From NCBI GenBank assembly GCA_044892525.1, contig CM097885.1, positions 558,001 to 622,000 of the forward strand: a stretch of 64,000 nucleotides of DNA, written 5' to 3'. The notes below the pieces were generated by a model. That model was not told the origin of the DNA, made no database searches, and saw only the letters and a list, made by a program, of their open reading frames with translations. How positions within the stretch are numbered: the stretch's first letter is position 1; every line of letters starts with the position of its first letter. Made by a program: the position numbers and the translations under genes. The DNA comes from Schmidtea polychroa (lineage: Eukaryota). Positions 14,156-60,480 of this stretch are shown here, one piece after another.

Positions 14156-14357
14156 AATTAAATTTATGTGAATAATAAAATATATATTGTGAATTATTTG
14201 ACTTCGTTAATTAAAATATGTTTTATCATTTAATAATTCATTTGTCCAATTAATTTAGATAATTAGTTTTAAGTAAGAATTATTATTTATCATGAAAAAC
14301 TTTGCTTTGTTTTGAAAAATTAATGCCCATTTTATTTTAAATTAACACAGCTTTATT

Positions 14358-15298
14358 AGTAGTGTGGTTATATACCCAACCAAAACAGCCCTCCCAACAA
14401 AACATGCCTCCAAATCACTTAAGCTATTAGAAAAACAACCTAAAACTTTTACTTTTATAGTATTTTAACCCTATATTTTGAAAACAACCACCCTTAATGA
14501 CTCTAACTGTTTTAATTTTTAAAGCCTCAAACTCAAAAGCATCAAACTAAAAAGAGAATAGAAAAGAAAATGGCATTATGAAAAAGTTAGAGGGCTATTT
14601 GATCTTTATCAGATTATTGATTTTAAATTATATAAATTAAAAAATAAATGAAAAATAGTAAAACTGCTCTGAGGGGACAGTGGTATTTTTTTTTTTTTCA
14701 CTGTCCCCTCAACAGTTTTTTTTGATCCGGTTCATTTTTTTTATTTATCAACCTCTTTCGTTTATCGAATCTCTTCCAATATACAAGCTGGCCAGACTCA
14801 TACATCAGAATCAATCCGATAATAGCAGCACACCTTATTATTCGCTTCTCGCTCGAATACGATTTCATCGGCGTTTTAAGTGTGCTGCTCGAAAGTACAA
14901 ATGAATTCGAAAGCGAATTCGAAAGAGGTCCGAAAACAACTGAGAAATAAATGTGCACATTAAAGAATCGATCCGGGGGTGTTCGAAAGACAGGTGGCGA
15001 TAATTACCGGTTCGCCACCATCACCCGTTTCAATATTTTTTTTTTCATATTTATGTTTAAAAAATAATTAATTAATAAAAAAATAAAATAAAATAAAATA
15101 AATAAAATAAAATATACAAGTACTTTATAAATATAAGATACCCACACTATTTTCAATATTATTTTCAAATTTTTAATATTATTTTATGTTGAAAAAAAAA
15201 CTAACCTCAGATGTGATTTGAACCGCTAGCATTTTGAACCACTGTGTCAGTCTAGCCCACTGCGCCATCAAGGTTTGGATTTTTTGTCATTTTTTAAA
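14358..15298 (+). repeat. Left TIR of Polinton A (~940 bp)
   Basis: Reverse complement of ~30472-31416 with scattered substitutions and small indels. Confidence 0.96.
15192..15274 (-). ncRNA. Candidate tRNA-derived Pol III transcription unit within the left TIR
   Basis: A box TGGCGCAGTGG (15267-15257), B box GGTTCAAATC (15224-15215), terminal stem ACCTTG/TGAGGT, T9 terminator; cloverleaf arms not conserved. Confidence 0.55.
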
Positions 15299-15379
15299 TT
15301 TTTATTATAAAAAATGAATAATATAAATCTTAAAAAATAAAATGAAAACAGGGTATCCAATAAAAATTTTTTTCTAAAA

Positions 15380-16012
15380 ATGAATTGTAATATTTGCAAT
15401 AAAGTTTTTAAAAATAAAACTGGATTAATTTCTCACTTAAAATCGAAAGCTCATTTATTAAAAGAAAATAATTTTAATGATACAAATTCAAAACTTTGTC
15501 TTAAATGTAAAGGAAGATTTCTACATTCTGGATATAATAAACATTTTGAAAATTGTATCGGGAAAAATAGAGAAATATTTACATGTCCTCATTGTAACTT
15601 TTCAACAAAACTAAATTTCTATTATTTAGAACATATAAAAGAATGTAAAAATAAAAAACAAAATTCTGACGATGAGGAATGTCATTCAGAAGGAGAGCCT
15701 GATCATGTTGAAAGAGAAAAATATAACTGGGATAATTTTAATCATATAGATGAATTTCAATTAAAAATTAATGGGCCTGCAACTCCTGGAGAATATATAA
15801 ATAAAAATAAAAAAAATATTAAAAATTCTTTCACTGATTCTTTAAAAAATTATAAGCCGACAAGGTATAATGTTATAAAATATAAAATTATAATCAAAGC
15901 AAAATACTGGCGAGGAGCAGAAGAAAAGACAACACCCTTAGATGTTGAAATGGAATACCTTTTAAATATTTATTTTCAATTAAAGGATTTGATAAAACCA
16001 TCAAAGAAATAA
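15380..16012 (+). CDS. Zinc-finger protein (three C2H2/C2HC-like fingers); probable frameshifted N-terminus of pPolB
   Basis: CNIC..H..H, CLKC..H..C, CPHC..H..C; overlaps the open pPolB frame from 15949. Confidence 0.8.
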   Translation: MNCNICNKVFKNKTGLISHLKSKAHLLKENNFNDTNSKLCLKCKGRFLHSGYNKHFENCIGKNREIFTCPHCNFSTKLNFYYLEHIKECKNKKQNSDDEECHSEGEPDHVEREKYNWDNFNHIDEFQLKINGPATPGEYINKNKKNIKNSFTDSLKNYKPTRYNVIKYKIIIKAKYWRGAEEKTTPLDVEMEYLLNIYFQLKDLIKPSKK

Positions 16013-19000
16013 TTAAAGCAGCAGAAGCAAAACAAGAGGAAGTAGAAAATGAATTAGGAGATTCAAACTTAGTATTCAACTCTTTCCAAACTTTAGTGAT
16101 TGATTATTGGAGAGGATTACCACCCAATTCTAAATCTTATATTTCTACACCCTTTAAATCTAAAAATGTTATAAATGTACAGAATAATGATAACAAATGT
16201 TTCATCTGGTCAATACTTGCACATTTACATCCTCAAGCAACAAATCCCCAAAGAGTTTCAAAATACAAACAATATGAAAATGAATTAATATTTCCCAAAG
16301 GATTCAAACACCCAATGAAACTAGAAGACATTCCAGAATTTGAAAAATTAAATAATCTTAAACTTAATATTTATGAACATGTTATAGGGAAAGAAATTAT
16401 TCCAATTTATATTTCAGATAGTGGAACCAAGGATAACGGAGCACAGGACAATGAGATATATCTTTTAATCTTGGAACAAGAAAATAATCAACATTATGTT
16501 TTAATAAAAAACTTTCAAGCTTTTAGATCTCCAGAGAATCCAACTAGTGGAGGAGGAACATGTAAAAGATGTCTTCATTATTCAACAACTAAAAACTCTA
16601 TGATTAAACATACAAGATTTTGTGAAAAAGATGATCCAGCTTTAATTAAAATGCCTAATAATCCCAAGATGTATTTTAAAAACTTTTCAAATTTACTACA
16701 AACAGTTGGAGTTCTTTATGGTGACTTTGAATCTATAAACCATAAACAAGATTTGGTTTATCAATATTTAAAAATAATAGAAAAAAATAAACTCATGGAT
16801 TTATGGAACTCCTCAGGAGAGAAGATGAAACCAGAGAGGATGAAAGCCTTTCTAAGAAAAAGAAATAAACCTAATAGTGTTAAAAAAACTAAACAATTAT
16901 CATCTGCTTATAAATTATTATTTAAAAGTAATTATCCTGAACTCATAGAATCTAGAGAATATTCAATTCTAGGAGGTACCCCTGAAGAAGTCTTGAATCA
17001 TTTTACTAAAAATATAAATGATCTAGAACATGAAATATTTAAAATATTAAAAACAAAGTATCCTCAAAATATTTCTAATCAACAACAACAAGAATATGAA
17101 AATACTTCCAACTGTTGGATGTGTAAACAGAATATTCTTCCTGATGAAAAAGTTATAGATCATGATCATTTAAAAAAGGAAAATAATTATCGAGGAGCAG
17201 CTCATAAAAATTGCAATCTTAATTGCCATACTCCTAAATTTATACCTGTTATATTTCATAATCTTTTTGGATATGACATACATCTATTTATTAAACACCT
17301 CGCAGCAAATGCTAAAAACTCTTTCAAAGTTATCGGCTTAACAAAGGAAAAATATAAATCAATTGAATATGGAAAATTAAAATTTATAGACTCGTTAAAC
17401 TTTCTCCAAATGTCTTTAGATGCAGTAGCAAAAACAATGAAAGCAGAAAATTTTAAAATCACTGGAGAATTCTTGGAAAAAAATAATATTCCTCTAGAAG
17501 AATATCCTACATGTTTAGCAAAAGGAATATATCCTTATGACTATGTTGACTCGTTTGAAAGATATAATGAAACAAGTCTTCCTAGCCAAGAAGATTTCTA
17601 TTCACAACTTCAAAAAAATCATATTACAAATCAAGAATATTCTCGAGCAAATAAAATGTGGGAATTATTCAAGTGTAAAACTTTAGGAGAATATACAAGT
17701 ATGTATTTATCCTTGGATGTTTATATTCTAGCAGATTGCTTTGAAGAATTTACAAAATCTTTTGTTCTTAAACCCTATAATTATATAACTGCACCCTCTT
17801 TAGCTTGGGATACTATGTTATATACCATTTGGACTTCAAATATAGAAGATGCTGATAAAATTATAGATCTTTTAACTAACCTCGATATGTTTAACCAAAT
17901 TAAAACAAACATTAGAGGAGGAGTCTCTTCAGTAATGGGGAATAGAGAAATAAAAGCTAGAAATGCAATAACTACTAGCCGAAGACTATCTAAACACCCT
18001 GATGATCCATATATGAAAATTAACAATGAGGAATTAAAAGAATTATTAGAAACAATGAAAAATCCTATATTTATACTTTATATAGATGCAACAGCTTTAT
18101 ATTCAGGAATTATGACTCAATATTTACCAATGAGTGATTTCACTGAAATAGAGAACCCAACAGATGACCTTATGAAAGAAATACTTTCAACATCGAAAGA
18201 TTCTCCAATAGGTTACTTTATAGAATGTGACCTCGACTATCCAGATGATATAAAATCAGGAACAAGATATTTTCCTTTAGTTCCCATAAGCCGACAAGGT
18301 ATAATGTTATAAAATATAAAATTATAATCAAAGCAAAATACTGGCGAGGAGCAGAAGAAAAGACAACACCCTTAGATGTTGAAATGGAATACCTTTTAAA
18401 TATTTATTTTCAATTAAAGGATTTGATAAAACCATCAAAGAAATAATTAAAGCAGCAGAAGCAAAACAAGAGGAAGTAGAAAATGAATTAGGAGATTCAA
18501 ACTTAGTATTCAACTCTTTCCAAACTTTAGTGATTGATTATTGGAGAGGATTACCACCCAATCCTAAATCTTATATTCCTACACCCTTTAAATCTAAAAA
18601 TGTTATAAATGTACAGAATAATGATAACAAATGTTTCATCTGGTCAATACTTGCACATTTACATCCTCAAGCAACAAATCCCCAAAGAGTTTCAAAATAC
18701 AAACAATATGAAAATGAATTAATATTTCCCAAAGGATTCAAACACCCAATGAAACTAGAAGACATTCCAGAATTTGAAAAATTAAATAATCTTAAACTTA
18801 ATATTTATGAACATGTTATAGGGAAAGAAATTATTCCAATTTATATTTCAGATAGTGGAACCAAGGATAACGGAGCACAGGACAATGAGATATATCTTTT
18901 AATCTTGGAACAAGAAAATAATCAACATTATGTTTTAATAAAAAACTTTCAAGCTTTTAGATCTCCAGAGAATCCAACTAGTGGAGGAGGAACATGTAAA

Positions 19001-20724
19001 AGATGTCTTCATTATTCAACAACTAAAAACTCTATGATTAAACATACAAGATTTTGTGAAAAAGATGATCCAGCTTTAATTAAAATGCCTAATAATCCCA
19101 AGATGTATTTTAAAAACTTTTCAAATTTACTACAAACAGTTGGAGTTCTTTATGGTGACTTTGAATCTATAAACCATAAACAAGATTTGGTTTATCAATA
19201 TTTAAAAATAATAGAAAAAAATAAACTCATGGATTTATGGAACTCCTCAGGAGAGAAGATGAAACCAGAGAGGATGAAAGCCTTTCTAAGAAAAAGAAAT
19301 AAACCTAATAGTGTTAAAAAAACTAAACAATTATCATCTGCTTATAAATTATTATTTAAAAGTAATTATCCTGAACTCATAGAATCTAGAGAATATTCAA
19401 TTCTAGGAGGTACCCCTGAAGAAGTCTTGAATCATTTTACTAAAAATATAAATGATCTAGAACATGAAATATTTAAAATATTAAAAACAAAGTATCCTCA
19501 AAATATTTCTAATCAACAACAACAAGAATATGAAAATACTTCCAACTGTTGGATGTGTAAACAGAATATTCTTCCTGATGAAAAAGTTATAGATCATGAT
19601 CATTTAAAAAAGGAAAATAATTATCGAGGAGCAGCTCATAAAAATTGCAATCTTAATTGCCATACTCCTAAATTTATACCTGTTATATTTCATAATCTTT
19701 TTGGATATGACATACATCTATTTATTAAACACCTCGCAGCAAATGCTAAAAACTCTTTCAAAGTTATCGGCTTAACAAAGGAAAAATATAAATCAATTGA
19801 ATATGGAAAATTAAAATTTATAGACTCGTTAAACTTTCTCCAAATGTCTTTAGATGCAGTAGCAAAAACAATGAAAGCAGAAAATTTTAAAATCACTGGA
19901 GAATTCTTGGAAAAAAATAATATTCCTCTAGAAGAATATCCTACATGTTTAGCAAAAGGAATATATCCTTATGACTATGTTGACTCGTTTGAAAGATATA
20001 ATGAAACAAGTCTTCCTAGCCAAGAAGATTTCTATTCACAACTTCAAAAAAATCATATTACAAATCAAGAATATTCTCGAGCAAATAAAATGTGGGAATT
20101 ATTCAAGTGTAAAACTTTAGGAGAATATACAAGTATGTATTTATCCTTGGATGTTTATATTCTAGCAGATTGCTTTGAAGAATTTACAAAATCTTTTGTT
20201 CTTAAACCCTATAATTATATAACTGCACCCTCTTTAGCTTGGGATACTATGTTATATACCATTTGGACTTCAAATATAGAAGATGCTGATAAAATTATAG
20301 ATCTTTTAACTAACCTCGATATGTTTAACCAAATTAAAACAAACATTAGAGGAGGAGTCTCTTCAGTAATGGGGAATAGAGAAATAAAAGCTAGAAATGC
20401 AATAACTACTAGCCGAAGACTATCTAAACACCCTGATGATCCATATATGAAAATTAACAATGAGGAATTAAAAGAATTATTAGAAACAATGAAAAATCCT
20501 ATATTTATACTTTATATAGATGCAACAGCTTTATATTCAGGAATTATGACTCAATATTTACCAATGAGTGATTTCACTGAAATAGAGAACCCAACAGATG
20601 ACCTTATGAAAGAAATACTTTCAACATCGAAAGATTCTCCAATAGGTTACTTTATAGAATGTGACCTCGACTATCCAGATGATATAAAATCAGGAACAAG
20701 ATATTTTCCTTTAGTTCCCATAAG
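15852..20724 (+). repeat. 2,434-bp internal tandem duplication in the pPolB gene
   Basis: ATAAG microhomology at 15852, 18286 and 20720; near-identical translations. Confidence 0.96.
15949..18312 (+). pseudogene. polB: Truncated first copy of pPolB (ends after motif A at the duplication junction)
   Basis: Same translation as the 18530 ORF (two differences) up to FPLVPI, then out-of-frame junction sequence. Confidence 0.9.
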
Positions 20725-22123
20725 AAGAAAGATTGATATCAACGAACTTCCTGAATGGCAAATCTCACAAGATAAACCTCCAACAATGAAACTTCTTTGT
20801 GATCAAACAGATCGAAGGTTTTATCTTTGTCACTATAGACTCCTCCAATTTTATCTCTCACGAGGAATGATATTAAAAAAAGTTCATAGTGTCATAAGAT
20901 TTAAACAAGCTCCATTCATGAAAGCTTTTATCGAGGAGAACATTAGGTGTCGAAACATTGCAAAAAGAGAAGGTAACCTTTTTAAAGATAATAATTATAA
21001 ACTTTTAAACAATTCAGTCTTTGGGAAAACAATGGAGAATGTTGATAAATATACTCATATTGAACTCCTAACAAATACTACCAAAGATATTAAGCGTTAT
21101 AATCGCATGCTAGGAAAGCCTACATTTAAAAACGCACAAGTATTTTCTGAAAATCATACTGCAGTAGAATTAAAAAATTATGAGAAAACATATAACAAAC
21201 CAATATTTATAGGGTTTACAATTTTAGAACTTTCAAAATTACAAATGTATGAAACATATTATAACATCTTACAACCTATATACGGAGCAAATATATCAAT
21301 GCATGCAATGGATACAGATTCAATGTTTTTAACAATAAGAACTCATGATTTACAAAAAGATATGAAAGAAAATCCTATACTTTCAAATTTAATAAATTCA
21401 TCTGGAGAACTATTTTCGTTTAAAGATGAAAAACCTTTTACTCCTATAGAAAATGGAATATTTATTCGTGCTAAACAATATTCATACGAAACATTTAGAA
21501 ACCCTGAATTTATAACTAGATCATTTATATTTAAAACTCCAGAAACAGAAGAAACCATTACACATAGATATCCTATATTTCCTAAAGGACCAGAGGGACA
21601 AGAAGAAAAACCTGTAAAGGATAACAGATGTAAAGGAATACAGAGAGTGGTGGCAAAGAATCTTTCTCATCAAGATTATATAGATACATTGAATCCAAAT
21701 CATAAAGATAAAATTGATGAAATACATCAACTTAAAAGTGAAAACCATGATATTCACTTGATAGAATCTCAAAAAGTATCATTATCAAATTATGATGATA
21801 AGAGATTCATACTAAGTGATTTAAAGACAACTCTACCTATTGGAAATAATTTAATTCCTATAATAAAAAATCTAGAAAAGTTGAATAAGTTATATGATAC
21901 AAAGATTACTGATCTTGATATTTATAATGTTGAAATTATTTATCCCGAGAGAGAAATCGAGAAACCTTTATATTCTCAAGTTTTTAATCCTATATGTTTA
22001 GAACTTAAATATTTTAATACTGATCCTGAATATATAAAAGGTCTAAGTGATAAAGAATTTAAAGATCATAAATTAATGATTCATAGGTTGGCTTTAACCA
22101 TAACTGAAACCAACGATATTTAA
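18383..22123 (+). CDS. polB: Protein-primed family B DNA polymerase with EndoVII-like insert (open frame begins ~18383; ORF track start 18530)
   Basis: Exo YGDFES and FHNLFGYD; DHDH...YRGAAH..CN; YIDATALY, KLLNNSVFGK, MDTDS, AKQY, DDKR. Confidence 0.96.
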   Translation, partial: NGIPFKYLFSIKGFDKTIKEIIKAAEAKQEEVENELGDSNLVFNSFQTLVIDYWRGLPPNPKSYIPTPFKSKNVINVQNNDNKCFIWSILAHLHPQATNPQRVSKYKQYENELIFPKGFKHPMKLEDIPEFEKLNNLKLNIYEHVIGKEIIPIYISDSGTKDNGAQDNEIYLLILEQENNQHYVLIKNFQAFRSPENPTSGGGTCKRCLHYSTTKNSMIKHTRFCEKDDPALIKMPNNPKMYFKNFSNLLQTVGVLYGDFESINHKQDLVYQYLKIIEKNKLMDLWNSSGEKMKPERMKAFLRKRNKPNSVKKTKQLSSAYKLLFKSNYPELIESREYSILGGTPEEVLNHFTKNINDLEHEIFKILKTKYPQNISNQQQQEYENTSNCWMCKQNILPDEKVIDHDHLKKENNYRGAAHKNCNLNCHTPKFIPVIFHNLFGYDIHLFIKHLAANAKNSFKVIGLTKEKYKSIEYGKLKFIDSLNFLQMSLDAVAKTMKAENFKITGEFLEKNNIPLEEYPTCLAKGIYPYDYVDSFERYNETSLPSQEDFYSQLQKNHITNQEYSRANKMWELFKCKTLGEYTSMYLSLDVYILADCFEEFTKSFVLKPYNYITAPSLAWDTMLYTIWTSNIEDADKIIDLLTNLDMFNQIKTNIRGGVSSVMGNREIKARNAITTSRRLSKHPDDPYMKINNEELKELLETMKNPIFILYIDATALYSGIMTQYLPMSDFTEIENPTDDLMKEILSTSKDSPIGYFIECDLDYPDDIKSGTRYFPLVPIRRKIDINELPEWQISQDKPPTMKLLCDQTDRRFYLCHYRLLQFYLSRGMILKKVHSVIRFKQAPFMKAFIEENIRCRNIAKREGNLFKDNNYKLLNNSVFGKTMENVDKYTHIELLTNTTKDIKRYNRMLGKPTFKNAQVFSENHTAVELKNYEKTYNKPIFIGFTILELSKLQMYETYYNILQPIYGANISMHAMDTDSMFLTIRTHDLQKDMKENPILSNLINSSGELFSFKDEKPFTPIENGIFIRAKQYSYETFRNPEFITRSFIFKTPETEETITHRYPIFPKGPEGQEEKPVKDNRCKGIQRVVAKNLSHQDYIDTLNPNHKDKIDEIHQLKSENHDIHLIESQKVSLSNYDDKRFILSDLKTTLPIGNNLIPIIKNLEKLNKLYDTKITDLDIYNVEIIYPEREIEKPLYSQVFNPICLELKYFNTDPEYIKGLSDKEFKDHKLMIHRLALTITETNDI

Positions 22124-22201
22124 TTTTTTAATAATAAAATGTCGACAATTAATTTAAGCAACTATAGCAACCTGATCTACTTTTTTAAAAATACACCCAT
22201 T

Positions 22202-22762
22202 TTATAAGTAAGAATTCTTTAACCATTTTTCTCGAGATGTTTTTTTATTACTTATAACATTAGCCACCATGCCCTCCCTTTTTAATCTTATAACCTCATT
22301 CTTTATATCTTGTATTATTTGATTTGATTTCATTATTTCTTCGTCTGTCAGGATTCCATCTTCCAAAGCTTTTAATTGAAATAAAAATAATTTAGAGATT
22401 CCTAATTCTATTGATAAACAAACTTCTCTATATAAACTTTTCTTTTTAGAAGTATAAGATAATGAAACTATTTCAGTTAAGAAACCATCAGCCACAGAAA
22501 TACTTCCAAGTATTACAGGTGCAAGAGTAACAACTGGTAAAGTTATGGGTAAAATAACTGTTAATATTGCAGATGCAAATCCTAAAGAATAATCTATAAC
22601 TTTTAAAACTGTATTCCCTTTATTCCATCTATTTTTAATTTTTTTATAATGCTTTAATAAATCTTGTAAATGTAAGGTTTCTGATTTAAATTCTTTTACT
22701 CTCATAATTTCAAGTTCTGTGGGAGCCGAGGCCTTGGAAGAATAATATCCTGATGATCTCAA
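22202..22762 (-). CDS. Predicted two-TM membrane protein, resembling the 'GasderminX'-type ORF of adintoviruses (tentative); start uncertain
   Basis: Central hydrophobic pair, upstream in-frame IYPEL...SAP, C-terminal KALEDGILTDEE. Confidence 0.55.
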   Translation of the reverse strand: MRSSGYYSSKASAPTELEIMRVKEFKSETLHLQDLLKHYKKIKNRWNKGNTVLKVIDYSLGFASAILTVILPITLPVVTLAPVILGSISVADGFLTEIVSLSYTSKKKSLYREVCLSIELGISKLFLFQLKALEDGILTDEEIMKSNQIIQDIKNEVIRLKREGMVANVISNKKTSREKWLKNSYL

Positions 22763-22806
22763 TTCTGGGTAAATTTTTTCTTCTCTTACTTCTTCCTTTT
22801 TAATAT

Positions 22807-23817
22807 TTAAAAAAATAAGACTTTATTCTTCTGAGCACCATCTGGCACCAATACTCGGATGTCAAAAGAAACTCTTGTTGAGAGGATATCTTTATACAAT
22901 TCTCTCAATGCTTTACGAACTTCATCAACATCAACCTTTTTTTCATAAAATATTAAATCTATATATTGTACAAGTGAACTAGAAAAATGAATATTCTTAC
23001 TTTTAACTTTATGTAGTCCATGTGAATGAGTATTAACATACCAATCTCCGTGTGGTAAATCATAACTAGTCATTATAACATCACCCTTTTCAAGCTTACT
23101 ATTATAATCACATTTCACAAACCATTTCATTCTTTCATTATCATCATCAAACAAAAAGAAATAAGGATCAATAATTTTTACAACCATAAAAACACCCCAT
23201 TCTTTACTGTTTGTTGTTATTAAACTTGGTTCTATAAAATGTTTATATGTATGGGGTAATAATGTTTTATTCTGTTCTAATTCAGCAGCTCTTTTTCTAA
23301 TACTATGTGTGGTGTTAATGTGTGTTCCATGAGACTCTAAATTTGAAATTCTTTTATTAAATGATGTAATCATCTCATTTATTATTTTATATATTGTATT
23401 AAATTTAGTATTCATAATTTGTTTATCTTTAGAATTTAATATAGCAGTATTTAATTTTACAACTTGTTCAGTTAACAGACTTTGTAACTTGTCAAATTTA
23501 TCATTAAATCGTTGTTCGATATTATTAAGCTTTGATTCCATTGAATCAATGTTTGTTGTTAATGAACTTTCAATTCTTGTTGTTGTTAAATCAGTAAAAT
23601 TTTTAACACCATCAACATATTTTTTATTAACTGCATCAGCTTCATCAGTTGGTAAAGATAAATCTTTTATCTTGTGTCCATTTAAATTTAAATCTCCTTT
23701 CATTGAATCACCTCTTTCATTAATATATTTATTTTCTGTTAAAGTTAATATTTCTTCTGTATTAAACCCTGTTTTTATTGTTCTACCACCTCTATTACAT
23801 GGAATATAAGAACTCAT
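22807..23817 (-). CDS. Fiber/spike-like virion protein
   Basis: GDSMKGDLNLNGHKIKDLSLPTDEADAVNKKYVD motif, then a coiled coil, an RKR/AA site and a globular C-terminus; adjacent to the penton gene. Confidence 0.65.
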   Translation of the reverse strand: MSSYIPCNRGGRTIKTGFNTEEILTLTENKYINERGDSMKGDLNLNGHKIKDLSLPTDEADAVNKKYVDGVKNFTDLTTTRIESSLTTNIDSMESKLNNIEQRFNDKFDKLQSLLTEQVVKLNTAILNSKDKQIMNTKFNTIYKIINEMITSFNKRISNLESHGTHINTTHSIRKRAAELEQNKTLLPHTYKHFIEPSLITTNSKEWGVFMVVKIIDPYFFLFDDDNERMKWFVKCDYNSKLEKGDVIMTSYDLPHGDWYVNTHSHGLHKVKSKNIHFSSSLVQYIDLIFYEKKVDVDEVRKALRELYKDILSTRVSFDIRVLVPDGAQKNKVLFF

Positions 23818-23841
23818 TTATTAATAATTTAAAATGAATCT

Positions 23842-24605
23842 TCAAACCTGTTTCAAATGTAAATACATTGAAATCTCTTCTCCATTAAAATCAATCAATT
23901 CTCCTTCTTGATTAAGAATTTTAAAATTAATATCCATTATATATTTTCTACATAAAGGTAAATAATTTGGAGGATTCATTCTTTCAACTATTTTATATCC
24001 CATAGGAACTGTGTTTGAGGGAAAGGAATATAAAACATTTGTTTGTTTACCATTATTATAAAAACCTGTTATACAATCGCAATGAATATTTATTGTGTTT
24101 GTATTTATTATTTTTATAATATTTTCTGATGTTATTATTTTATCTTCTTTTATTGTTATATCCATAGGTTTAAATCCTAAAACTGTGTAAAGAAACAATT
24201 ATCTAAAAAACTAATTTTTAAATTCTTCAAAGTCATTACACATTTTGAAGTTGGTATATCCATTTTAATTTTAATACCTTCATTTGTTTTTTTAGAAAGT
24301 ATATCATTTAAATCTTTTATCTCATATGCCCCAGGTTCTATTGTTATAATTTCTGGTTTATGCCCATCACGAGTTTGAATAGTAAATTTATTATTATCTT
24401 TAGTTATATTAAAAATAGTATTATAAGCACAAAACCATAATAGCCCCAATTCATAATTTAAATTTTGATCTAATTTAATTGAATCTTGAAAGTTTATAGT
24501 AAAGTCTGATTCTTTTGAATTTATAGATAAAGTTCTTGAATATTTATCTGACATTATGTTTACCATTTTTTTTAAATTATCTTCCGGAGGCTTGTGAAGC
24601 TCCAT
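23842..24605 (-). CDS. Minor capsid protein (penton, single jelly-roll), split by one frameshift near 24195
   Basis: FTINF..IKLD..YELGL, IEPGAYEIKDLN, VLGF, INIHCDCITG.Y.NG, NQEGELIDFNGE motifs. Confidence 0.85.
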
Positions 24606-24653
24606 TTCTTTAGTAGTAAATTCATATAGTAAAAATCCTTATAGTAAAAATCC

Positions 24654-25118
24654 TTATAGTAGAGATTCTAGATCATTATAAATTTCTTGAATTATAGATT
24701 CAAAATCCTGCGTATGCCCCTTTCCCTCTTCCTTATTCAATCTATACAAAACATATAAACTTAAAATACCACATATTTTAGTATTCAAAGGTTGAACTTG
24801 TAAAGAGTTAAAAGTATAACCATTTGGGGAATCAATCGGAGAACCCCTCAAGAGATAATCTTCAACTTCTTTAGTAGGTTTAATCCCAAAAGAATCAAAG
24901 TAGATAGATTTCTTATATATACAAACCCAATGAGATCCTTTTTCATTTGAATTTTGATAATTGATTATTATATTCAGGGGACTCTCCAGACTTGATAATT
25001 CATCATTCATTAATATTTTAATTTTTAAATTTAAATAATTTGCATAATCTTTTAAATCAAAATTTGTTTTTGCATTTATTCCAAATGTTTTTAAAAAATC
25101 TAATATTGAAGGAGTCAT
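24654..25118 (-). CDS. Adenain-like cysteine protease (maturation protease)
   Basis: GSHWVC, YFDSFG and QVQ...CG catalytic motifs. Confidence 0.93.
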   Translation of the reverse strand: MTPSILDFLKTFGINAKTNFDLKDYANYLNLKIKILMNDELSSLESPLNIIINYQNSNEKGSHWVCIYKKSIYFDSFGIKPTKEVEDYLLRGSPIDSPNGYTFNSLQVQPLNTKICGILSLYVLYRLNKEEGKGHTQDFESIIQEIYNDLESLL

Positions 25119-25140
25119 TTTGTATTTTAAAACTTCGTAT

Positions 25141-26022: not shown

Positions 26023-26044
26023 TTTAATGGTATCAAAAATGGTA

Positions 26045-26623
26045 TCATAGTTCGAAGGGCTTCAAGTATAATCCTTTACCATTTTTAGTTTTACAAAGGC
26101 ATCCATTCTTTAAAGATTTACATATTTTTTTTAAATCTTCTTTATCTTTTGAAGATAAAGATTCAGATGTAGAAATTTGATTTTTTAAAAAATCATTTAA
26201 ACCTCTACCTTTATAAGGATCAAGATAGAGACCTTTGCCCTGAGACTTTTGCCGACTCCCCTCATATGGATTAAGATAGAGACCCTTTCCAACGGACACT
26301 CCCCCTTTAGCTTGCCCTACCTTCTTCATTGAATCGATTTCAGTTTGTAGTTTTTCTTTTTCTAGGTCTGTCTTTTGAGATTCTTTAGCTTTTTGAACTG
26401 TAGTTGCAATTCCTCCAGCTAATCCAGCAGCACCTGATAAACCAGCAATGATTGCAGGTATTAAAGCAGCTAATGGAAGAATGCCACCTTCTTTAGCTTC
26501 GTGGAGCTTCGCTCTAACTTGTTCTTTTACATGTTTTCCAATAAAATATTTTTTACCATCAATTACTACTGATTTATTTTTATTTGAATTTATTAATTCT
26601 TGCAAAGATTCTTCAGTTGTCAT
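26045..26623 (-). CDS. Adenovirus pX-like core/membrane-active precursor
   Basis: GGILPLAALIPAIIAGLSGAAGLAGGIAT; repeated GKGLYLxP(Y/F). Confidence 0.7.
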   Translation of the reverse strand: MTTEESLQELINSNKNKSVVIDGKKYFIGKHVKEQVRAKLHEAKEGGILPLAALIPAIIAGLSGAAGLAGGIATTVQKAKESQKTDLEKEKLQTEIDSMKKVGQAKGGVSVGKGLYLNPYEGSRQKSQGKGLYLDPYKGRGLNDFLKNQISTSESLSSKDKEDLKKICKSLKNGCLCKTKNGKGLYLKPFEL

Positions 26624-26638
26624 TTTATAATAAACAAA

Positions 26639-27442: not shown

Positions 27443-27453
27443 GGCTTGTCGAC

Positions 27454-28858: not shown

Positions 28859-28875
28859 TTTAAAATGTTAAAATA

Positions 28876-30168: not shown

Positions 30169-30254
30169 TTTTATATATAAAAGTTGATAAAAATAAAATT
30201 TGAAAAATAAAAATAAAAATAAAAGGGAATTCATTAAAAAAATAATTTATAAAA

Positions 30255-31416: not shown

Positions 31417-31422
31417 TTTATT

Positions 31423-48905: not shown

Positions 48906-50200
48906 ATTCAACAACAAATCAACAACTTAGTACCAACAACCAGTAACTTACGAACATGTATTACCAACCAGATACCTACAACCAGTTACCTGATACCAAG
49001 TACCAACAACCAAAAACATGCAACCAACTAGGTACCAAGTACTAACAACTAACTACCAAGTACATACAACCAACAACAACCAGTTACTAATCATTATTAA
49101 CCACCTACTAAGTACCAACAACCAGTAACTTACGAACATGTATTACCAACCAGATACCTACAACTAGTTACTAACAACCAGTTACCTGATACCAAGTACT
49201 AACAACCCACAACAATTAGCTAACAACTAACTACCACCTACCAAGTACCTACAACCAACTACTAAGTACTAACAACCAAAAACAACCAACTAGGTACTAG
49301 ATACCAAGTACTTACAACAAACATCAACCAAGTACCTACTACCACCTACCAAGTACTTACAACTAGTTACTAACAACCAATTACTTGCTACCAAGTACTT
49401 ACAACTAGATACCACGTACTAACAACCGTCAACAACCAGGTACTAAGCCTTATCAACCTACAACTAGTTACTAACAACCAGTTACCTGATACCAAGTACT
49501 AACAATCAAAAACAACCAACCAACTAGGTACTAGATACCAAGTACATACAACCAACATCAACCAGGTACTAAGCATTAATTACCAACTACTAAGCACCTA
49601 CAACCTACAACTAGATACTAACAACCAGTTACCTGATACCAAATACTTACAACTAGATACCAAGTACTATCAACCAAAAATCACCAACCAACTAGGTACC
49701 AGATACCAAGTACCTACAACCAACTAGCTACCACCTACCAAGCACTCAACCGTCAACAACCAGTTACTAAGCATTATCAACCAACTAAATACTAAGTACT
49801 AATAACCAACCAGTTACCTGATACCAAGTACTTACAACTAGTTACTAACAACCAGATACCTACAACTAGTTACTAACAACTAGTTACCTGATAGCAACCA
49901 ACTAGGTACCAGATACCAAGTACTAACAACCGCCAACAACCAGATACCTACAACTAGTTACTAACAACCAGTTACCTGCTACTAAGTACCTACAACCAAC
50001 TAGCTACCACCTACCAAGTAACAACAACCACCTACCCATTAACTAGCTACTAAGTACTAACAACTAACTACCACCTACCAAGTACATACAACCAACATCA
50101 ACCAGGTACTAAGTATTATCAACCAGCTAACAACCAAGTAACTTACCTAGTACTAAGCACTGTCAACTAGATACCAAACACTTACAACCAGATGACCACA
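48905..50200 (+). repeat. Strand-asymmetric C/A-rich mosaic satellite
   Basis: Shuffled modules ACCAAGTAC, TAACAACC, ACAACTAGTTAC, AGTTACCTGAT; no ORF in the track. Confidence 0.85.
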
Positions 50201-50997
50201 TGAAATTATTGGTTAAATATGAAAATAAGGGTTATAATTAGTTGTTTAGTAAATTATGGTGTAAAATTAAGTAATAAAGGATAAATAGGCAAAATAAGGA
50301 TAAGTAAATTAAAGTTAAAAATTTTAAATAAGTAAATTAAGGTTCAAAATTTTAAATTAAAGGAAATAATGGTTTAAATTTTAAATTAAAGCTAAATGAG
50401 TAAATTAAAGTAATAATTTTTAAATAAGTAATGTAATAAGTAAATTAAACTAAGATTTTTAAATTTATTAACAAAAAATAGAAAGTGTTTGAGAATTGAA
50501 ATTTTTTAATGAAAATTTTTATGAAATATTTTTTAAGTTAATTTTTAATGGAAATTTTAATGGAATAATAATAATAATACTAATAATTCAACAGTTACCA
50601 ACAATCGGTTACTGATTATTTTTTAACTAGTTGCTAACAAATACTTACACCATGATACCACGTACTAACTAACTCTCAAACAACCAGATACTTACAACTA
50701 ACTACTAAATATTCTTTATTGTATTTTATGAAATGCTTTTTAAATTAATTTTTTATCTATCTTCAAAAATATATTTAATTACAATCATTAGAAAAACCTT
50801 TTCAAATTTCACAAAAATGTTGATTTTCATCAAAAAACCACAACTCATCACCACGTGGAATTCAAAATAATTTTAATTACAATGAAAGACTAATGAATTC
50901 TAATTTACAAAACATTCTTCTTTTAAATGATAACTTATTATTGCAATGTAAAAATCGCATTCAATAAATACTTATTGTTGATCAGTTTTATTATATA

Positions 50998-53900
50998 TAC
51001 TCTGAGTTTATCCGACAGGATGTTTTGACCCCCTAAGGGTACTGGTCGTAAGGGTACTGGTCGTAAGGGTATTAGTCGTAGGGGTATTGATCACTCTCAA
51101 TCCACACCTACTCATTAATTAGCTACCATGTACTAACCACTAGGTTTCAAACAACTAAATACTAAACACTTACAACCATGTACTAACAACCACCATCAAA
51201 ACCCATCGAGAAATTAACAAATATCAACCTACAACTAGATACTTACAACCAGATACCTGCTACCAAGTACTTACAACAAGATACCAAGTACCAACAATCA
51301 ACTAACCACACATAAAAATAATAGCAATTAAATACAAAATATTCTTCATCACATACAATATCTTCTTATCAAAATCTAAAAAAGTCAACCAATTACTTAC
51401 AACCAACAACTATGTACTAACAAATTGATCTTTAAAAGCAAATACTCATCACTTGAAAAAATTAGATGAAAAATTAATTGAACTCAAGGCACTTTTAAGA
51501 TATTTGAACTCAAGGCATCAATAACTTGGTAAAAATTGATTAAATTATTGTAAAAATTTAAATTATTCAAAATATACTAAATTAAAAAAATATAATTAAT
51601 GGACAAGAAAGAACTTTAAATTCTAGTCATTGATCATTCAAGTTAATATGAATCAACTAAGATAATAAATTAATAAGAATTTTGAAATAAGATCTAGTAG
51701 ATAATTGATTTAGATTGAATAAATTAATTTAAATAAAATTAAATTTAATTATTTTTTTAAAAGTAATACATGTACTCAAATTGATTGACTGATTTCTCAA
51801 TATATTCAAAAAATCAGTATAAATTCATTACAATTATCAAAGTCAGCAATCTACAATAAAAATAATTATCATTAAATTCCAAAAGAGACTAGATAACTAA
51901 TGATAACATCTAACAAACCAGTAAATTCATTTAAATGACAATAATTGGTATATCCAAGTGAATTCTCCAATAAAATCATCTAAAAAGAATCATTTTCCCC
52001 TAAATATATCAATATTTAAAGATTGGTATTTTAATGATAAGTACTTGTTAAAGATCATATATTCACCTCAAACTAACAAGATTCCTTAAAATCCCCTTAA
52101 ATGACTACATTTCTATCCTTAATTCATATTATTACAAATATCATCTAAAAAGCATCAAATTTCATTGAAATAACACTATCTTTAAAGATTGATATTTTAA
52201 AGATAAGTACTCATAAAAGACTATATATTCACCTCAAACTAACAAGATTCCTTAAAATCTCTTAAATGACTATATTTCTACCCTTAATCCATATTATTAC
52301 AAATATTTCACTAAAATCATCTAAAAAGCATCAAATTTCCCTGAAATAACTATCTTTAAAGATTAGTATTTTATCGATAAATATCCTTAAAAGGTTATAT
52401 ATTTACCTCAGACTAATAAGATTGCTTAAAATCCCCTTTAAATGACTTTAATTCCTATTATCACGAATATTATAAAACATGTAAAATAATTTGGTCATTA
52501 ACCCTAAATAATTGATAAAATCTAATGATAAAACCGGTTATAATTAACTTTTTGTTAATCACTGTACTCGAAATTTAAAATAAATATAACTGACTAGGTC
52601 CCATTAAAAGATTAAATTTATCCATTCAATAAAATATATTTCTTCAAATGGTCAACTTTTGTCGTTGTCCACCTAAATAAAGATAAAAATAATTTAAAGT
52701 TGATATCAATCCCATTTATCTGTAAAGTTTTCATCGTCAAAACCAAGTAAATCGACATTGTTCTAAAACATAAATCTAAATTAATATACAATGAATTAAT
52801 CACAATCTAATAAAACGATATAATTATTATTGATACATAACTGACTAATGTATTGACATTTCCCTTAAAACAATGATATTTTACCAACATCACCATTAAA
52901 AAAATCATATATTCCCATCTTAACCCATGTCTCATTAAATTTAACCGACTATATTCCCATCTTAACCCATTCCTCATTAAAGTCAATCGACTATATTTCC
53001 CTTACAATGATATATTCCCATCTTAACCCATGTCTCATTACATTTAACCGACTATATTCCCATCTTAACCCATTCCTCATTAAAGTCAATCGACTATATC
53101 TCCCTTACAATGATATATTCCCATCTTAACCCATCTCACATTAAATCTAACCGACTATATCCCCTTAAAAGATCATATTTTCCCCATCTTAACCGATCAC
53201 TCATTAAATCTCACCGACAATATCCCATCTTATCCGATCTCTCAGCAAATATTTCTACCCTTTTAAACATCTATCCGAATATATCCCTTATTTTCCCTAA
53301 AGATTTCACCCACTTGAGCCCTTTAATATATATCAATCCTCTTAAAATCCTCAGAGAACTTCAAAAATATGACTTTTAATTAATTGTTATAGAACCAGAC
53401 AAATAATAAGAGCCCACTAAAAGATCAAAATTCACTAAATTTCTACAAATATATACCATCAAATACTGGAGATGATATATATTGATTGATCATAATTCTT
53501 CATCGATTCAGCCAATCATTTTCAAGCGCTATCAGCAAACTAAATTTCAGTATATTCTACAATCATTTTCAAGTAAATTAAAATTCCTTGTTAAAGTTAA
53601 CTAGTTTCTTAGCTCATGTTTTTTAAAGTTCATCAATGAGTAAATATTCTTAGAAAATTATTGAAAAAATTATTTAGTGAAATATATTACAAACTTATCA
53701 TTAAAAATTTATTCTATCACTTGAAATTAATTTTTATTTAAAAACTATTCAATAAAATACCACAAATTATCAAGAAATTAATTAAATTTATCAATTAAAT
53801 TTATCACCATTAAAACTTTTAATCAGTCAACATGAAATTCTTAGAAAATTATTCAATATCCTCATAAAAATTTATCCTACCACTTGATTATTGTACAAAC

Positions 53901-54469
53901 TCTAATTATTAACCTCATTAAAAATTAAAAATACATCCAATTATCAAGAAATTAATTAAATTTATCTTAGAACTAACTTTGAATTATTAAATATTCATTC
54001 AATAATCATGAAATCCACAAAAATAATAGAAATTTACAAAAATCAAAGAAATTCACAAAAATGATAAAAATTCATGAAAATGATAGAAATTCACAAAAAC
54101 GATAAAAATTCATAAAAATTATAGCAATTCACAAAAATGATAGATATCCACAAAAATTACAGATAATCAAAAAAATTACGGAAAATAATAGAAATCCGCA
54201 AAAATAATAGAAATTCACAAAAAAACGATAAAAATTCACAATAAAAAAACGATAAAAATTCACAAAAAAGATAGAAATTTACTTGAATAAAACCATCAAC
54301 TCTAAAAATTATGAATACCTTAAACAACAAATTTGACTAAATAATCATTCAAATAAAAACATTAAATACCTTTACGACTAATACCCTTGCGACATGTTGA
54401 ATGTGAGTAGTACCCTTGTGAGCAATACCCATAGGGGGACAGAATATTGTGTCGGATAAACTCAGAGTA
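50998..54469. mobile_element. Non-coding TIR element (~3.5 kb), superfamily unassigned
   Basis: TACTCTGAGTTTATCCGACA and TGTCGGATAAACTCAGAGTA in TA-rich flanks; subterminal AAGGGTACTGGTCGT repeats; internal tandem arrays. Confidence 0.8.
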
Positions 54470-55558
54470 TATATTAATTAACTCATTCTTCATTGAATTA
54501 GTCAAATTATCATAAATTTCGATAAAAATTCTAAAGTGGTAAGCAATGTAAAGAGAAATATTCTTTAAACTTTGATAAAATTAACAATGAAGGAGGTAAG
54601 AATCTTCATTAAAGTGAGGAAATTACTCGATGATAAATTCAAATGGGTGAAAATAATTGGTAGAATAATTCATTAATGGAGGTAGATAATGAGAAGTAGT
54701 ATAGATAAGATGAAGGTTGATAAGAATGGATGTATTGCAACTATTTTCTAAAAATTAACACTTTAATAAAAAAAAACTTTTAAAACAAATATTTGTGGTG
54801 ATGTTTTAAGTGAATAAGTAATCAAAATCGGCGGAATATAAGTAGAAAATCGGGGTAGGGGTTATAGGCGAATAATTAATGGAAAATCGGGGGTAATATA
54901 GGGATTAAATAGTGGAGAATAATAGTGAATATAAGTGAGAAGGATATATAATTTAAACTATTTTATTACGTAAATATATTTAAACAATTTAGTTATTTAG
55001 GCATATTTAAACATTAATATTATTATATAGTATAATTTTATATAATTTTATATAATATTATAATTTTATATATTCTAAATTTAATAAATAAAATTAATTA
55101 ATTATAATTAATTAATAATTTAATAATAAAAAATTTATAATGAAGATTCTTTGAATTAAAAAATATTCTGTTAGTATTTCCAGGCAGAAAACAACGAATT
55201 CAATAATTAAAATCTTAATTTTCAAGTTATATATTTAGGGTTGTGGCCAGAAGTTAATCGCCATCTAATCATTTGTTTTCAATTTCGCTTATTTTTGTTC
55301 AAAACATTCAGGTGAGTTGTTATCTGAAAAGTTTCTTTGAGCTCAGTTTTGTTAAAACACTCACGGTATTTTTGAGGGACGTGACACTGGAAATAAATTA
55401 ACAATGAGTGGTCATCCATACATGTTGTTGGTCTGAGCTATCGATTTATTTTAGAAATAGGTATATTAAAAACATTTAAGGTATCATTCAGTAAAATAAT
55501 ATAGTATTTTTTAGTTAATTTATAAATAACAGTATTTTGATATATTAATAAAGACCAT

Positions 55559-56290: not shown

Positions 56291-56779
56291 ATTTAACCAA
56301 TTAAGGGGCTTATTAGTTAGAAATATATATATTATAAAGTAACAATTATTTTCTAATTTAATTAGATGATCATTAGACGTAATATATCTTTGCGAGAAAT
56401 TTAAAATGTTTGAGTAACCAAAACATGGATATTTTGTGCGATAAATTTATGAATATTGGTTAATTTTGTTATTTTTAGTCATTTAAAATAATATTTAGCA
56501 AAGGTAATTTAGCAAAATATCGTTGTAAGATTTATCCACCCGATAACAATATTCCTTCAATAGATTAACTGATATTCAACCTATTTAATTTCTGGAAATA
56601 TAATTAAAATCATAAATTTCCTTCAATAAAGTTAAATCAAAAATGCAAGAGACGCTCAAGCAAATCAAGAATTAAAAAATAAACACATTGCAGAAACAGA
56701 ATTTATATAAAGTCAAACCCTGACTCCTACAACAGGTTCAAGTCTAAATAAAATTCAATAAAAAGCAATAACACTAGTT

Positions 56780-56955
56780 AGTAGGACTCCAACCCACTTT
56801 CAAGGTCATGAAGTATGTCCAGATCAAATATAGGTCAATTGAATCATTTATTTTTAAATTAACATTTTATTTATTTACTTCTTTTTAATTTTTTCTTTTG
56901 ATTTATATTAATTATTTATTTTATTTTGTTTTATTTTAATTACTTACGCTATTTA

Positions 56956-57000
<45 letters not shown>

Positions 57001-58662
57001 TATTTTATTTATTTCTTTATTTTTTCTTAAATTTTACATTTACATTATATTCTAACAAGAGAGTTAATTATAACAATAATATTTCAATTTGTATAAAATT
57101 TTAATTAGTAATTATTCAATTTGAATAAAATATTTATTAGAAATTATTTAATTTATTATAAAATAAAACGCTGTGTTAATTTTAAATAAACTGGATATTA
57201 ATTTTTTGGAAAAAATAAATAAATAAAATAGTCTAAAAGGTTAAATTATGGTCTAAAATTTCAAATTTAAAAATTGAAAATTGAAAATTGAAAATTAAAA
57301 ACTAAACTAATCAAACTAAATCAAACGCTATAGCCTTAATTCAAGAATTCACTAAAGTAGATCAGAAGATATTAATTATCAAAATGTAACAAAGACTCTG
57401 AAATTCATCAATTTCATCTAATGACCTGGTGATATTCAATACCATTCTCAAGAATGCTAAAGTCGGGAATTCTTTGAATTTAACAATTTCATCTAACTAT
57501 CCGGGGATATTCGATCCGATTCTATAAAGTATTTATCTTTGTAGTTGAATAAAAGTTTATTGTTGATTATAGTTTATCATTAAATATTTTTTTGTTAGGG
57601 GTGTTAAAGAAAATACTTGACTGATTCATTTTTCTCAGATAAAATTTGTTCTGTAATCGGGAAATTCAAGGATGAGAATAAAGGAAATCAATATAACGAA
57701 TGGGTGTTTCTTCGACCCAAGTGCTACTCACTCCAAGGCGATAAAAACACTCTAAAAGCCAAAGGAATAAGACTTACAAACTCTAATCTTACACATGAAG
57801 CCTATAAAAAAGTGTATACTGATGGTGGAACAGTGAGCATCCCACAAAAAAGAATAGGAAGTGTCAATCATCAGTTGTATACTTTCATGTCAGAAAAACG
57901 AGCTCTCCAATGTTTGGACGATAAAAGGTATTGGTACAATTGTAATGAAAGCTATGCCTACGGTCACTATAAGATTCGTCAAATGCATATTGCAACTGCT
58001 ATGTCTAGAAATGAATGCAAATCGAAACAAGGACTTTAACAATTAAATTTATGTGAATAATAAAATATATATTGTGAATTATTTGACTTCGTTAATTAAA
58101 ATATGTTTTATCATTTAATAATTCATTTGTCCAATTAATTTAGATAATTAGTTTTAAGTAAGAATTATTATTTATCATGAAAAACTTTGCTTTGTTTTGA
58201 AAAATTAATGCCCATTTTATTTTAAATTAACACAGCTTTATTTTATGATTATTACTAATTAAAATTTTATTCAAATTGAAATATTATTGTTACAATATAC
58301 ACTCTTGTTAGAATATATTAAATGTAAATGTAAAATAATAACAATAAAAAAAAAATAATAATAATAATAAATAAATAAAAATTAAATAAAAAAAAAATTA
58401 ATTAAATAACGTAAGTAATTAAAATAAAATATTAATAAATAATTAATTAATTAAATGTAATAAATTGAAAATTCACTAAAGTAATTAATTAAAACAAAAA
58501 ACATAATAAAATAATTAATTAATAAATTTAAAAAAAAAATTAAATAGAAGTAATTAAATAAATTTTAAAAAAAAATAAATAGAAATGATTCTATTGACCT
58601 ATATTTGATCTGGACATTGGGATGACCTTGAAAGTGTCCTGGAGTCCTCACTATATACTACT
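56780..58662 (+). mobile_element. Family-B remnant: diverged inverted terminal copy (~56780-57215), pPolB 3' end (57617-58039) and terminal repeat ending ACTACT
   Basis: RPKCY and DDKR motifs; terminus at 58662; contains an empty site for Polinton A. Confidence 0.8.
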
Positions 58663-59310
58663 AATTATAATCATAATTTTCTTTAATTTAAACCTTTATT
58701 TACTTAATTTAGCCCTTGTTTACCGAATATAGAAGTTTAAAATATAGACCATTGATTACTTTAATTTAAAAATGTATCCCTTAATTTACATAATTTCCAT
58801 CTAAAATTATTTCAAAAAAATTTTTTTTCTAAAATTGTCATTGAAAAATATTTCATAAAATTTTTCATTTAAAATTTTCATTGAAAAATATTTCATAAAA
58901 ATTTTTTTTAAAAATTATCTTAAAAATTATTCCATAAAAATTTCCATCTAAAATTACTTAAAAAATTATTTCATAAAAATTTTCATTAAAAAATTTCAAT
59001 TCTCAAACACCTTCTATTATTTTGTTAATAAATTTAAAATCTTACTTTAATTTGCTTATTACATTACTTATTTAAAAATTATTACTTTAATTTACTTATT
59101 TAAAATATTTGGACATTAATTAACTTTAATTTAATTTTTTAGAACCTTAATTTACTTTAATTTTAAATTTTGACCCTTAATTAACTTTAATTCAAAATTT
59201 GGACCTTAATTTACTTTAATTGAAAATTTTAGACCTTAATTGAAAATTTGAGACCATAATTTTCATGTAAAATTGTCATTGAAAAAATTTTCATTTCTCA
59301 GGCGCCGTTT

Positions 59311-60480
59311 AGTAGGTGGTTAGGAGCCCGCTTCAAATGCAAGCCTTTTTTTTTGCTGCAACATTTGATTGCGCAATTGTTGCAACTTGTTTTTTTTTCT
59401 ATTGAAAATTCTAGAAAAAAAAATAATCGTAGCTTACTGTACAGCAAAAAAAATGAGTTGCAACAATTGCGTAATCAAAATTTGCAGCAAAAAAAAAGTT
59501 GCCGCAGACCCCCTCTCCCCCCCCCTAAAATTTTCAATTAAGGTCTAAAATTTTCAATTAAGTAATTAAGGTCCAAATTTTTTTAATTACAGTAAATTAT
59601 GGTTCTAAAAAATTAAATTACAGTAAACTATGGTCCAAATTTTACAATTACAGTAAATTATGGTATATATTTTTAAACTTCAGTAAATGAAGGTCTAAAA
59701 TTTCAATTAAGTAAATTAAGGTCTAAAATTTTCAATTAAGTAAATTAAGGTCTAAAATTTTAAATTAAATTAAATTAGGTCTAAAATTTTCAGATAAGTA
59801 AATTATGGTCTAAAATTTAAAAGTAAAGTAAATTATGGTATATATTTTTAAACTTAAGTAAATTAAAGTCTAAATATCAATTAAGTAAAGTAAGGTAAAA
59901 AATTTTCAATTAAGGTCTTAAATTTTCAGTTAAAGTAAATTAAGGTCCAAATTTTGAATTAAAGTTAATTAAGGGTCAAAATTTAAAATTAAAGTAAATT
60001 AAGGTTCTAAAAAATTAAATTAAAGTTAATTAAGGTCCAAATTTTTAAATTAAGTAATCAATGGTCAAATATTTTAAATAAGTAAATTAAAGTAATAATT
60101 TTTAAATAAGTAATGTAATAAGCAAATTAAAGTAAGATTTTAAATTTATTAACAAAATAATAGAAGGTGTTTGAGAATTGAAATTTTTTAATGAAAATTT
60201 TTATGAAATAATTTTTTAAGTAATTTTAGATGGAAATTTTTATGGAATAATTTTTAAGATAATTTTTAATGAAAATTTTTATGAAATATTTTTCAATGAC
60301 AATTTTAGAAAAAAAATTTTTTTGAAATAATTTTAGATGGAAATTATTTAAATTAAGGGATACATTTTTAAATAAAAGTAATCAATGATCTATATTTTAA
60401 ACTTCTATATTCGGTAAACAAAGACTAAATCAAGTAAATAAAGGGTTAAATTAAAGAAAATTATGATTATAATTATAATT
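59311..60480 (+). repeat. Family-C-type left terminal region forming a large inverted repeat with 58663-59270
   Basis: AGTAGGTGGTTAGGAGCCCGC resembles rc of 42464-42482; 60320-60475 is rc of 58663-58820. Confidence 0.75.

Follow-up and report, generated by a model that had tools for sequence, protein, structure and literature searches.

Copying of one composite junction, rather than targeted insertion, probably built a Polinton-derived array near a chromosome end of Schmidtea polychroa

How do several Polinton-type elements come to lie within or against each other's ends? The question is raised by a 64,000-bp stretch of the AT-rich, 781-Mb genome of Schmidtea polychroa (assembly GCA_044892525.1; contig CM097885.1, hereafter C1, 271.6 Mb). 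This stretch, C1:558,001-622,000, is called the window, and positions without a contig name refer to it. A preliminary description of the window distinguished three families, whose labels A, B, and C are taken over here, reported that they repeatedly sit inside each other's termini, and proposed either an integrase preference for Polinton termini or end-to-end accretion of a subtelomeric or heterochromatic array. Our analysis indicates that the window very probably belongs to a roughly 1-Mb tandem and segmental array, in which a single junction between a B end and the arm of a palindromic C-type element was probably multiplied by unequal recombination and not by repeated targeted insertion.

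The B-arm junction and the local array

Two B right ends are located on the plus strand, at 31870-33310, where a fragment of the 3′ part of the polymerase gene (pol) is followed by the terminal repeat, and at 57618-58662. Their ACTACT termini (33310 and 58662) do abut C-type arrays, as described, but they do not represent separate events. The sequences at 32269-33688 and 57618-59040 are copies of one junction and are 98.2% identical. The arrays beside B belong to a palindromic element, whose centre is about 650 bp away and whose outer end is roughly 7 kb away. They therefore lie near the palindrome centre, not at an element end. Self-comparison of the window reveals heavy internal duplication, of which this pair is one instance; 33677-36311 and 61434-64000 (95.5%) and 13567-14357 and 32090-32892 (94.8%) are others among further pairs.

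Genome-wide, 137 sites match an exact 22-base B-end pattern; C1:381,585-1,220,774 contains 20 of these, all on the minus strand. The density of B ends is about 24 per Mb in this 0.84-Mb patch, compared with 0.15 per Mb elsewhere. Behind all 20 local B ends is the same flank, in which no more than one of 40 bp differs, and this indicates a single insertion that was subsequently amplified. A 21st copy of the junction, with a variant end, is present at C1:1,337,817.

The array unit, exemplified by 57016-61707 (plus strand), consists of a B-type repeat, the B right end, an arm stub, a fold-back centre, and the start of the other arm. Seven units are arranged head-to-tail, with B ends at C1:981672, 986064, 990689, 995080, 999702, 1004309, and 1008917 and periods of 4,391-4,625 bp. 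Over about 1,350 columns, 0-4 substitutions separate six of the seven tandem units, whereas other copies are 3-91 substitutions apart and one rearranged copy more. Neighbouring units are most alike, which is the pattern of array turnover.

Motif copies of the array span C1:0.38-1.34 Mb. This interval contains 24 of the 30 loci of the C-type end at 59311 (see below) and 33 of the 62 arm-motif matches. The copy at C1 382 kb has a centre of reversed orientation with respect to the B junction, and inversion is seen in 9 of the 33 arm-motif copies, as expected from recombination between the arms. Terminal-type DNA makes up 13% of the contiguous stretch C1:528-672 kb, compared with 2.2% of 40 evenly placed 10-kb controls. 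Late insertions are present in few copies only (A twice and C once).

The fold-back centre at 59311

The preliminary description listed a further C-type end at 59311, behind C-type arrays. The position is correct, but the end belongs to the centre of a palindrome and is not an insertion. A stub of the left arm (58663-59310, minus strand), which is an inverted copy of 59887-60475 (86%), is followed by a fold-back centre (59311-59530, plus strand), a double-ended "mini-C" unit now lacking its second end, and by the start of the right arm (59536-63246, plus strand), with 30-bp and 13-bp arrays and the 5′ region of pol. The flank is common to all 30 loci returned for this end, including the six that are outside the array, on C1, C3, and C4. 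In intact copies, AGTAGG opens the short unit and CCTACT closes it, the centre forms a single long DNA hairpin on folding, and its two flanks mirror each other instead of repeating in the same direction. Genome-wide, 232 sites match the junction pattern exactly. Among the first 100 matches listed, 34 are single; the other 66 make up 33 pairs that face inward at a spacing of 164-433 bp, and the two members of every pair carry the same variant. The mirrored flanks without target duplication and the genome-wide occurrence of the junction indicate that 59311 is an inherited structure. It is the broken fold-back centre of a dispersed palindromic Polinton derivative.

Sixteen centres were taken with 10 kb on each side. 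Both outer ends are present in nine, and eight of the nine have exact 6-bp duplications. The centre-bearing copies are mostly 16-17-kb palindromes with a pol frame in each arm or with no long frame. The arms of five pol palindromes differ at 2-15 of 5,607 columns within a copy, compared with 126-221 between copies. Two of the 16 centres carry the double-ended unit as a plain outer end beside unrelated DNA. No full core gene set, but only pol frames or none, was found among two B, two C, and the 16 centre-bearing copies; the longer B copies (12-14 kb) were left out of this check, and an autonomous member may exist.

We tentatively suggest, as a possibility somewhat short of an even chance, that the 160-430-bp double-ended unit is a self-priming fold-back end that gives rise to palindromic dimers, and that one hairpin centre then seeded the megabase satellite array. 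The unit, when on a displaced single strand, would fold, and its 3′ end would copy the whole element back to yield a palindromic dimer, which the integrase would insert by its two outer ends. Replication of this kind would amount to parvovirus-like hairpin priming inside a protein-primed replicon, and the array seeded by the centre of one such palindrome would be a satellite made from a by-product of Polinton replication. The model fits the mirrored flanks without duplication, the likeness of arms within copies, and the two copies with a plain outer end. Palindromic dimers arise by fold-back from the self-priming hairpin ends of adeno-associated virus (AAV) and in yeast hairpin plasmids; the dimers here are known from integrated copies alone. 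The family of palindromes to which 59311 belongs is the greater surprise among our results and bears on Polinton replication.

A remnant of a polymerase-bearing palindromic C-type element occupies 33311-42484 (plus strand) and comprises an arm stub, a deleted centre, and a broken pol (38217-41370). Its outer C-type end, at about 42484, is joined to a non-long terminal repeat (non-LTR) retrotransposon (42483-42709 matches the reverse transcriptase frame at 9972-10198). This junction is a counter-example within the very range covered by the preliminary description, as a C-type end here lies beside a non-LTR retrotransposon and not beside a Polinton terminus.

Behind a gene-less C palindrome at C3:36.57-36.59 Mb, about 200 bp of its own left flank reappear in mirrored form, and then come other sequence and a further C end with the matching 6-bp duplication.

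Insertions of A and C into B-type ends

Two nested arrangements are true insertions, as the preliminary description had it. The first is element A (14358-31416, plus strand), a family A Polinton/Maverick with AGTAGT/ACTACT ends, which was inserted late into a B inverted repeat. TTTATT flanks A on both sides (14352-14357 and 31417-31422) and is present a single time at the corresponding position of intact B copies. The site is 453 bp from the end of the host B (31869), equal to 424-426 bp in intact B copies and in agreement with the ~420-450 bp first reported. Given the length of the inverted repeats (604 and 930 bp) in those natural B copies that show target duplications, the site is inside the B repeat, and A has entered it with a 6-bp duplication. 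The A-in-B junction is found at three places only (C1:540,231, the window, and C1:1,335,921), and the recurrence of the same junction indicates one event. The B right-end fragment split by A (13567-31869, that is, 13567-14357 plus 31417-31869; plus strand) ends in ACTACA and joins B polymerase sequence, with 2-bp microhomology, 1443 bp before the next B end. This join reflects either a tandem copy or a B-in-B event.

The inverted repeats of A are 941-947 bp long and 97.6% identical. Its frames correspond to a polymerase (18749-22123; Pfam PF03175, E 4.8e-13), a retroviral-like integrase (192-aa frame; PF00665, E 1.3e-9), an A32-type packaging ATPase (PF04665, E 5e-9), and a double-jelly-roll capsid protein (PF21738, E 2.1e-25). 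The integrase frame is short and likely broken. No Pfam hit was obtained in A for an adenovirus-like protease or a minor capsid protein; a 154-aa frame (24654-25118) looks by eye like a cysteine protease. Exact A-end motifs number 930 genome-wide.

A carries an internal 2.4-kb tandem duplication (15852-18290/18286-20724), which is 99.9% identical, as is a second tandem duplication in the window (1543-4866/5746-9069). The duplication inside A is absent from the A copy at C1:540,231 and is therefore either very recent or an assembly error. Elsewhere, two A ends at C1:9,385,422-9,385,695 face each other, 274 bp apart, without a 6-bp duplication, and possibly form a mini-A unit.

The second true insertion is the C element at 47318. 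The first 19 bp of a B-type left end (47299-47317, plus strand; 18 of 19 positions match the B end) are interrupted by a precise AGTAGG start, followed by one arm of a gene-less palindromic C element (47318-54973, plus strand) that matches one arm of gene-less palindromes elsewhere. An uninterrupted B-type end with the same outer flank and no C, that is, the empty site, is present at about C1:831,900, indicating that C inserted after the segment had been duplicated. C is thus a terminal insertion, 19 bp inside a B-type end. Genome-wide, an AGTAGT/AGTAGG start at most 25 bp behind a B-end motif has one match, 47318 itself. The exact pattern of a second C end with the GAGGAC duplication has 0 matches. 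Among the contigs from four runs on 47000-47460, none bridges the junction and one X1 contig ends at 47317; 28 contigs from the four runs connect the C start to flanks unlike that of the window. Degenerate C/A-rich repeats of 7/14/21 bp, strand-biased, are present in the C arm at 48900-50200.

Insertion preference of the integrases

The sample comprised 236 end records (62 A, 104 B, 60 C, and 10 palindrome outer ends). Without 63 duplicate records there were 173 distinct junctions. Counting each of 35 end pairs once, leaving out two structural junctions (one at a fold-back centre, one of an inner mini-B), and setting aside four events inside the array gave 132 dispersed events. The A sample is entirely from C1, and the sampled ends lean young, since a near-exact terminal match was the basis of their selection. 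To class the flanks, we compared them with slices of natural A, B, and C copies; the 40 evenly placed 10-kb stretches, classed in the same way, served as background, with shares of 2.2% for terminal (bootstrap 0.75-3.9%), 1.5% for centre-side, and 8.8% for internal sequence.

Exact 6-bp duplications are present in 33 of 35 end pairs (A 13/14, B 6/7, C 14/14). Three of the 132 events are terminal, that is, at most 1.5 kb away from an end of A, B, or C, compared with 2.9 expected from the raw background and 2.8 after AT matching (p about 0.54). Terminal or centre-side events number 5 (4.9 raw and 4.4 AT-matched expected) and internal events 16 (11.6 and 11.4), and no A, B, or C sequence is found at 111 of the 132 junctions. 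When the four local events are included, terminal insertions are 5/136 (p 0.18), and insertions in any A, B, or C sequence are 25/136 (p 0.02-0.03, background error not counted). No letter is fixed at positions -10 to -1 in the junctions of A (53), B (63), and C (47), and hence no conserved target sequence is found. The duplications made by the integrases are 6 bp long, and a general preference for termini is undetected.

The AT-matched comparison is the one that the preliminary description had proposed for its integrase hypothesis, and it speaks against that hypothesis as a general rule. Strong targeting of termini is excluded, and a few-fold preference may be compatible with the data. Polinton integrases here do not home on each other's ends enough to explain the window.

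Origin of the array

The array probably formed in four steps. A polymerase-bearing palindrome would first have entered a non-LTR retrotransposon; the junction is seen, and its place in the order is our reconstruction. A single B would then have inserted about 650 bp from the palindrome centre, at the one common junction that we see. Next, the unit of B end, arm, and centre would have been copied in tandem and in blocks; the copies are seen, and unequal exchange would account for them, with the inverted repeat perhaps an unstable seed of the copying. Finally, A (twice) and C (once) entered DNA that was already rich in termini, as the small number of copies with these insertions and the empty site of C show. 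The "repeated" nesting of the preliminary description cannot be counted as separate events, since 33310 and 58662 are one junction and 59311 is a structural one.

Several points weigh against this account. Only 234 kb of the array was read as long stretches, and its extent is taken from motif positions. The near-identical neighbouring units could partly be assembly error, and the B-arm junction is known from the assembly alone. The test of preference has limited power (upper 95% bound for terminal insertions 5.8%, against a background of 0.75-3.9%), and its library holds families A, B, and C only. Two of the three late array insertions are in B-type termini (p about 0.05-0.06 at 13-15% terminal DNA, a post hoc figure; the 15% errs on the high side, as some of the stretches had been selected for B ends, and the contiguous 528-672 kb gives 13%); the third, an A, is 1.7 kb from a centre. 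The position of C, only 19 bp from an end, is improbable by chance even in the array, although this is one instance only. Of the dispersed terminal insertions, two out of three are likewise in B-type repeats, where 0.69 are expected from the sampled background (0.52%, from 2 of 40 stretches) and 0.18 from a rough copy count (p 0.014).

The B-type events would also be accommodated by amplification combined with a mild integrase preference for B-type terminal repeats, which we consider unlikely but the most serious alternative. These repeats are very AT-rich and share the 10-mer TATAGTGAGG with the C terminal repeats, so that the 10-mer could tether a C integration complex. B-type repeats account for four of the five terminal events among the 136 (A at 421-424 bp, C at 19 bp, B at 588 bp, and C at 676 bp), and the C at 47318 lies 2 bp past TATAGTGAGG, which occurs six times in its own terminal repeat. 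However, the family was chosen post hoc, the sampled background lessens the excess that the copy count suggests, and the junction type at 47318 is unique in the genome. Tethering by the 10-mer was rejected: it is within 100 bp of 1/47 C junctions, namely 47318, 2/53 A, 0/63 B, and 0/10 palindrome junctions, with a background of 17 of 3,960 tiles.

End-to-end accretion, in which successive elements join each other's ends to build a subtelomeric array as telomeric retrotransposons do, is very improbable. HeT-A/TART telomeric arrays grow by successive tip insertions. In keeping with such growth, the array is within the first 0.5% of C1, all 20 copies of the B junction have one orientation, and B junctions are common to the end of C2 and the start of C3. 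However, accretion predicts many different junctions, whereas one B junction has been copied, and 9 of the 33 arm-motif copies are inverted. Moreover, the array ends about 0.38 Mb from the contig start, the first 20 kb of C1 does not resemble the window, and three consecutive TTAGGG or TTAGG units are absent from C1:1-20,000 and from the last 10 kb, although the C1 assembly may stop short of the telomere or the telomere motif may differ. Thus, what stands of the earlier proposal is a Polinton-built array near a chromosome end; it grew, in our reading, by copying one composite unit, and "subtelomeric" describes its position alone.

An assembly artefact at a palindrome that is hard to read is likewise scarcely credible as the source of most tandem copies. 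Some neighbouring units are 0-4 substitutions apart and the window contains 99.9%-identical tandem duplications, but the copies form groups that are up to about 90 substitutions apart and have deletions of their own, the late insertions vary, and one copy preserves the empty site. Moreover, fold-back reads could not create dispersed palindromes with different flanks and exact 6-bp duplications.

Comparison with known systems

Our best reading, amplification of a single junction, is that of a Polinton-derived complex tandem array that was amplified first and struck again later, like the Drosophila R1 and hobo arrays. In the sections of McGurk and Barbash (PMC5932611) that treat these arrays, one junction motif common to all units of the hobo array in line I03 points to one event, and later insertions into the R1 array were amplified within it. 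The resemblance extends to a junction with an identical target motif in all units, to later deletions and transposable element insertions, some re-amplified, and to unequal exchange as the proposed driver. The seed differs. In the same sections, it is a head-to-tail dimer from double insertion at a preferred site, whereas the present seed is a chimera of two Polinton-type families with an inverted-repeat centre and no detected site preference. In addition, other repeats interrupt the present array, and some of its blocks are inverted. The array shares with the HeT-A/TART arrays, as they are mentioned there, tandem mobile elements near a chromosome end, but it multiplies a single junction and stops short of the contig start.

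Compared with the features of Polinton/Maverick elements given in parts of PMC8097293 and PMC6431247, A and B have the (AGT)2//(ACT)2 end motif, inverted repeats at their termini, and target duplications of 6 bp, and A has the protein-primed PolB, integrase, ATPase, and capsid protein. Unlike those elements, C has termini that read AGTAGG, the fetched B copies are 7-9 kb long with pol as the sole frame of note, and the fetched C-type copies are 10-20-kb palindromes with pol in each arm or no long frame. Neither nesting nor target preference is addressed in those parts of the two papers. The palindromes resemble the products of ODIRA (origin-dependent inverted-repeat amplification), as outlined in part of PMC4689423, in that an inverted dimer with near-identical arms is centred on a short interrupted inverted repeat. 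They differ in that the outer ends are Polinton ends integrated with 6-bp duplications, not by homologous recombination.

In our literature searches, which covered neither subscription journals nor repeat databases, no listed title or abstract opening described a Polinton-derived tandem array, a palindromic Polinton, or a target preference of Polintons. The locus offers a worked example of a complex satellite made from virus-like elements, in which the founding junction, tandem copies, late insertions, and an empty site can all be read.

Other features of the B ends and the window

The B inverted repeats range from 604 to at least 1,477 bp and sometimes take in the 3′ end of pol, which suggests that one end was copied over the other to varying depth. 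Family B also produces doubled ends. A 5.8-kb element at C1:223,493,355-223,499,132 has a 174-bp double-ended mini-B unit at each end, with inverted inner flanks and an AATATT duplication outside. Some B junctions are common to the end of C2 and the start of C3, one set at C2:189.41 Mb and C3:151 and 158 kb and another at C3:679 kb and C2:188.77 Mb, through either duplication between chromosome ends or assembly overlap.

A diverged B-type left end (56774-57618, plus strand) carries a chance AGTAGG at 56780. This motif and the one at 51 (in the copy at 1-925) were rejected as C ends, as both are in diverged B-type ends. Doubled ATAATT at about 60475, the mirror position of the B site, was considered as a B excision footprint and rejected, because the doubled form is present in 61 of 62 genome-wide matches, 28 of which are far from the array.

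Non-LTR retrotransposon frames (RVT_1, zf-RVT) are located at 8968-13569 and 42483-43214, and an A end at C1:1,487,712 is in sequence related to them. The palindrome arm also contains a DNA transposon (35556-37845, minus strand) with an 8-bp duplication, TTATACAT, and weak Pfam hits, which we take to be hAT/Spin-like. A second copy of it starts at about 63247.

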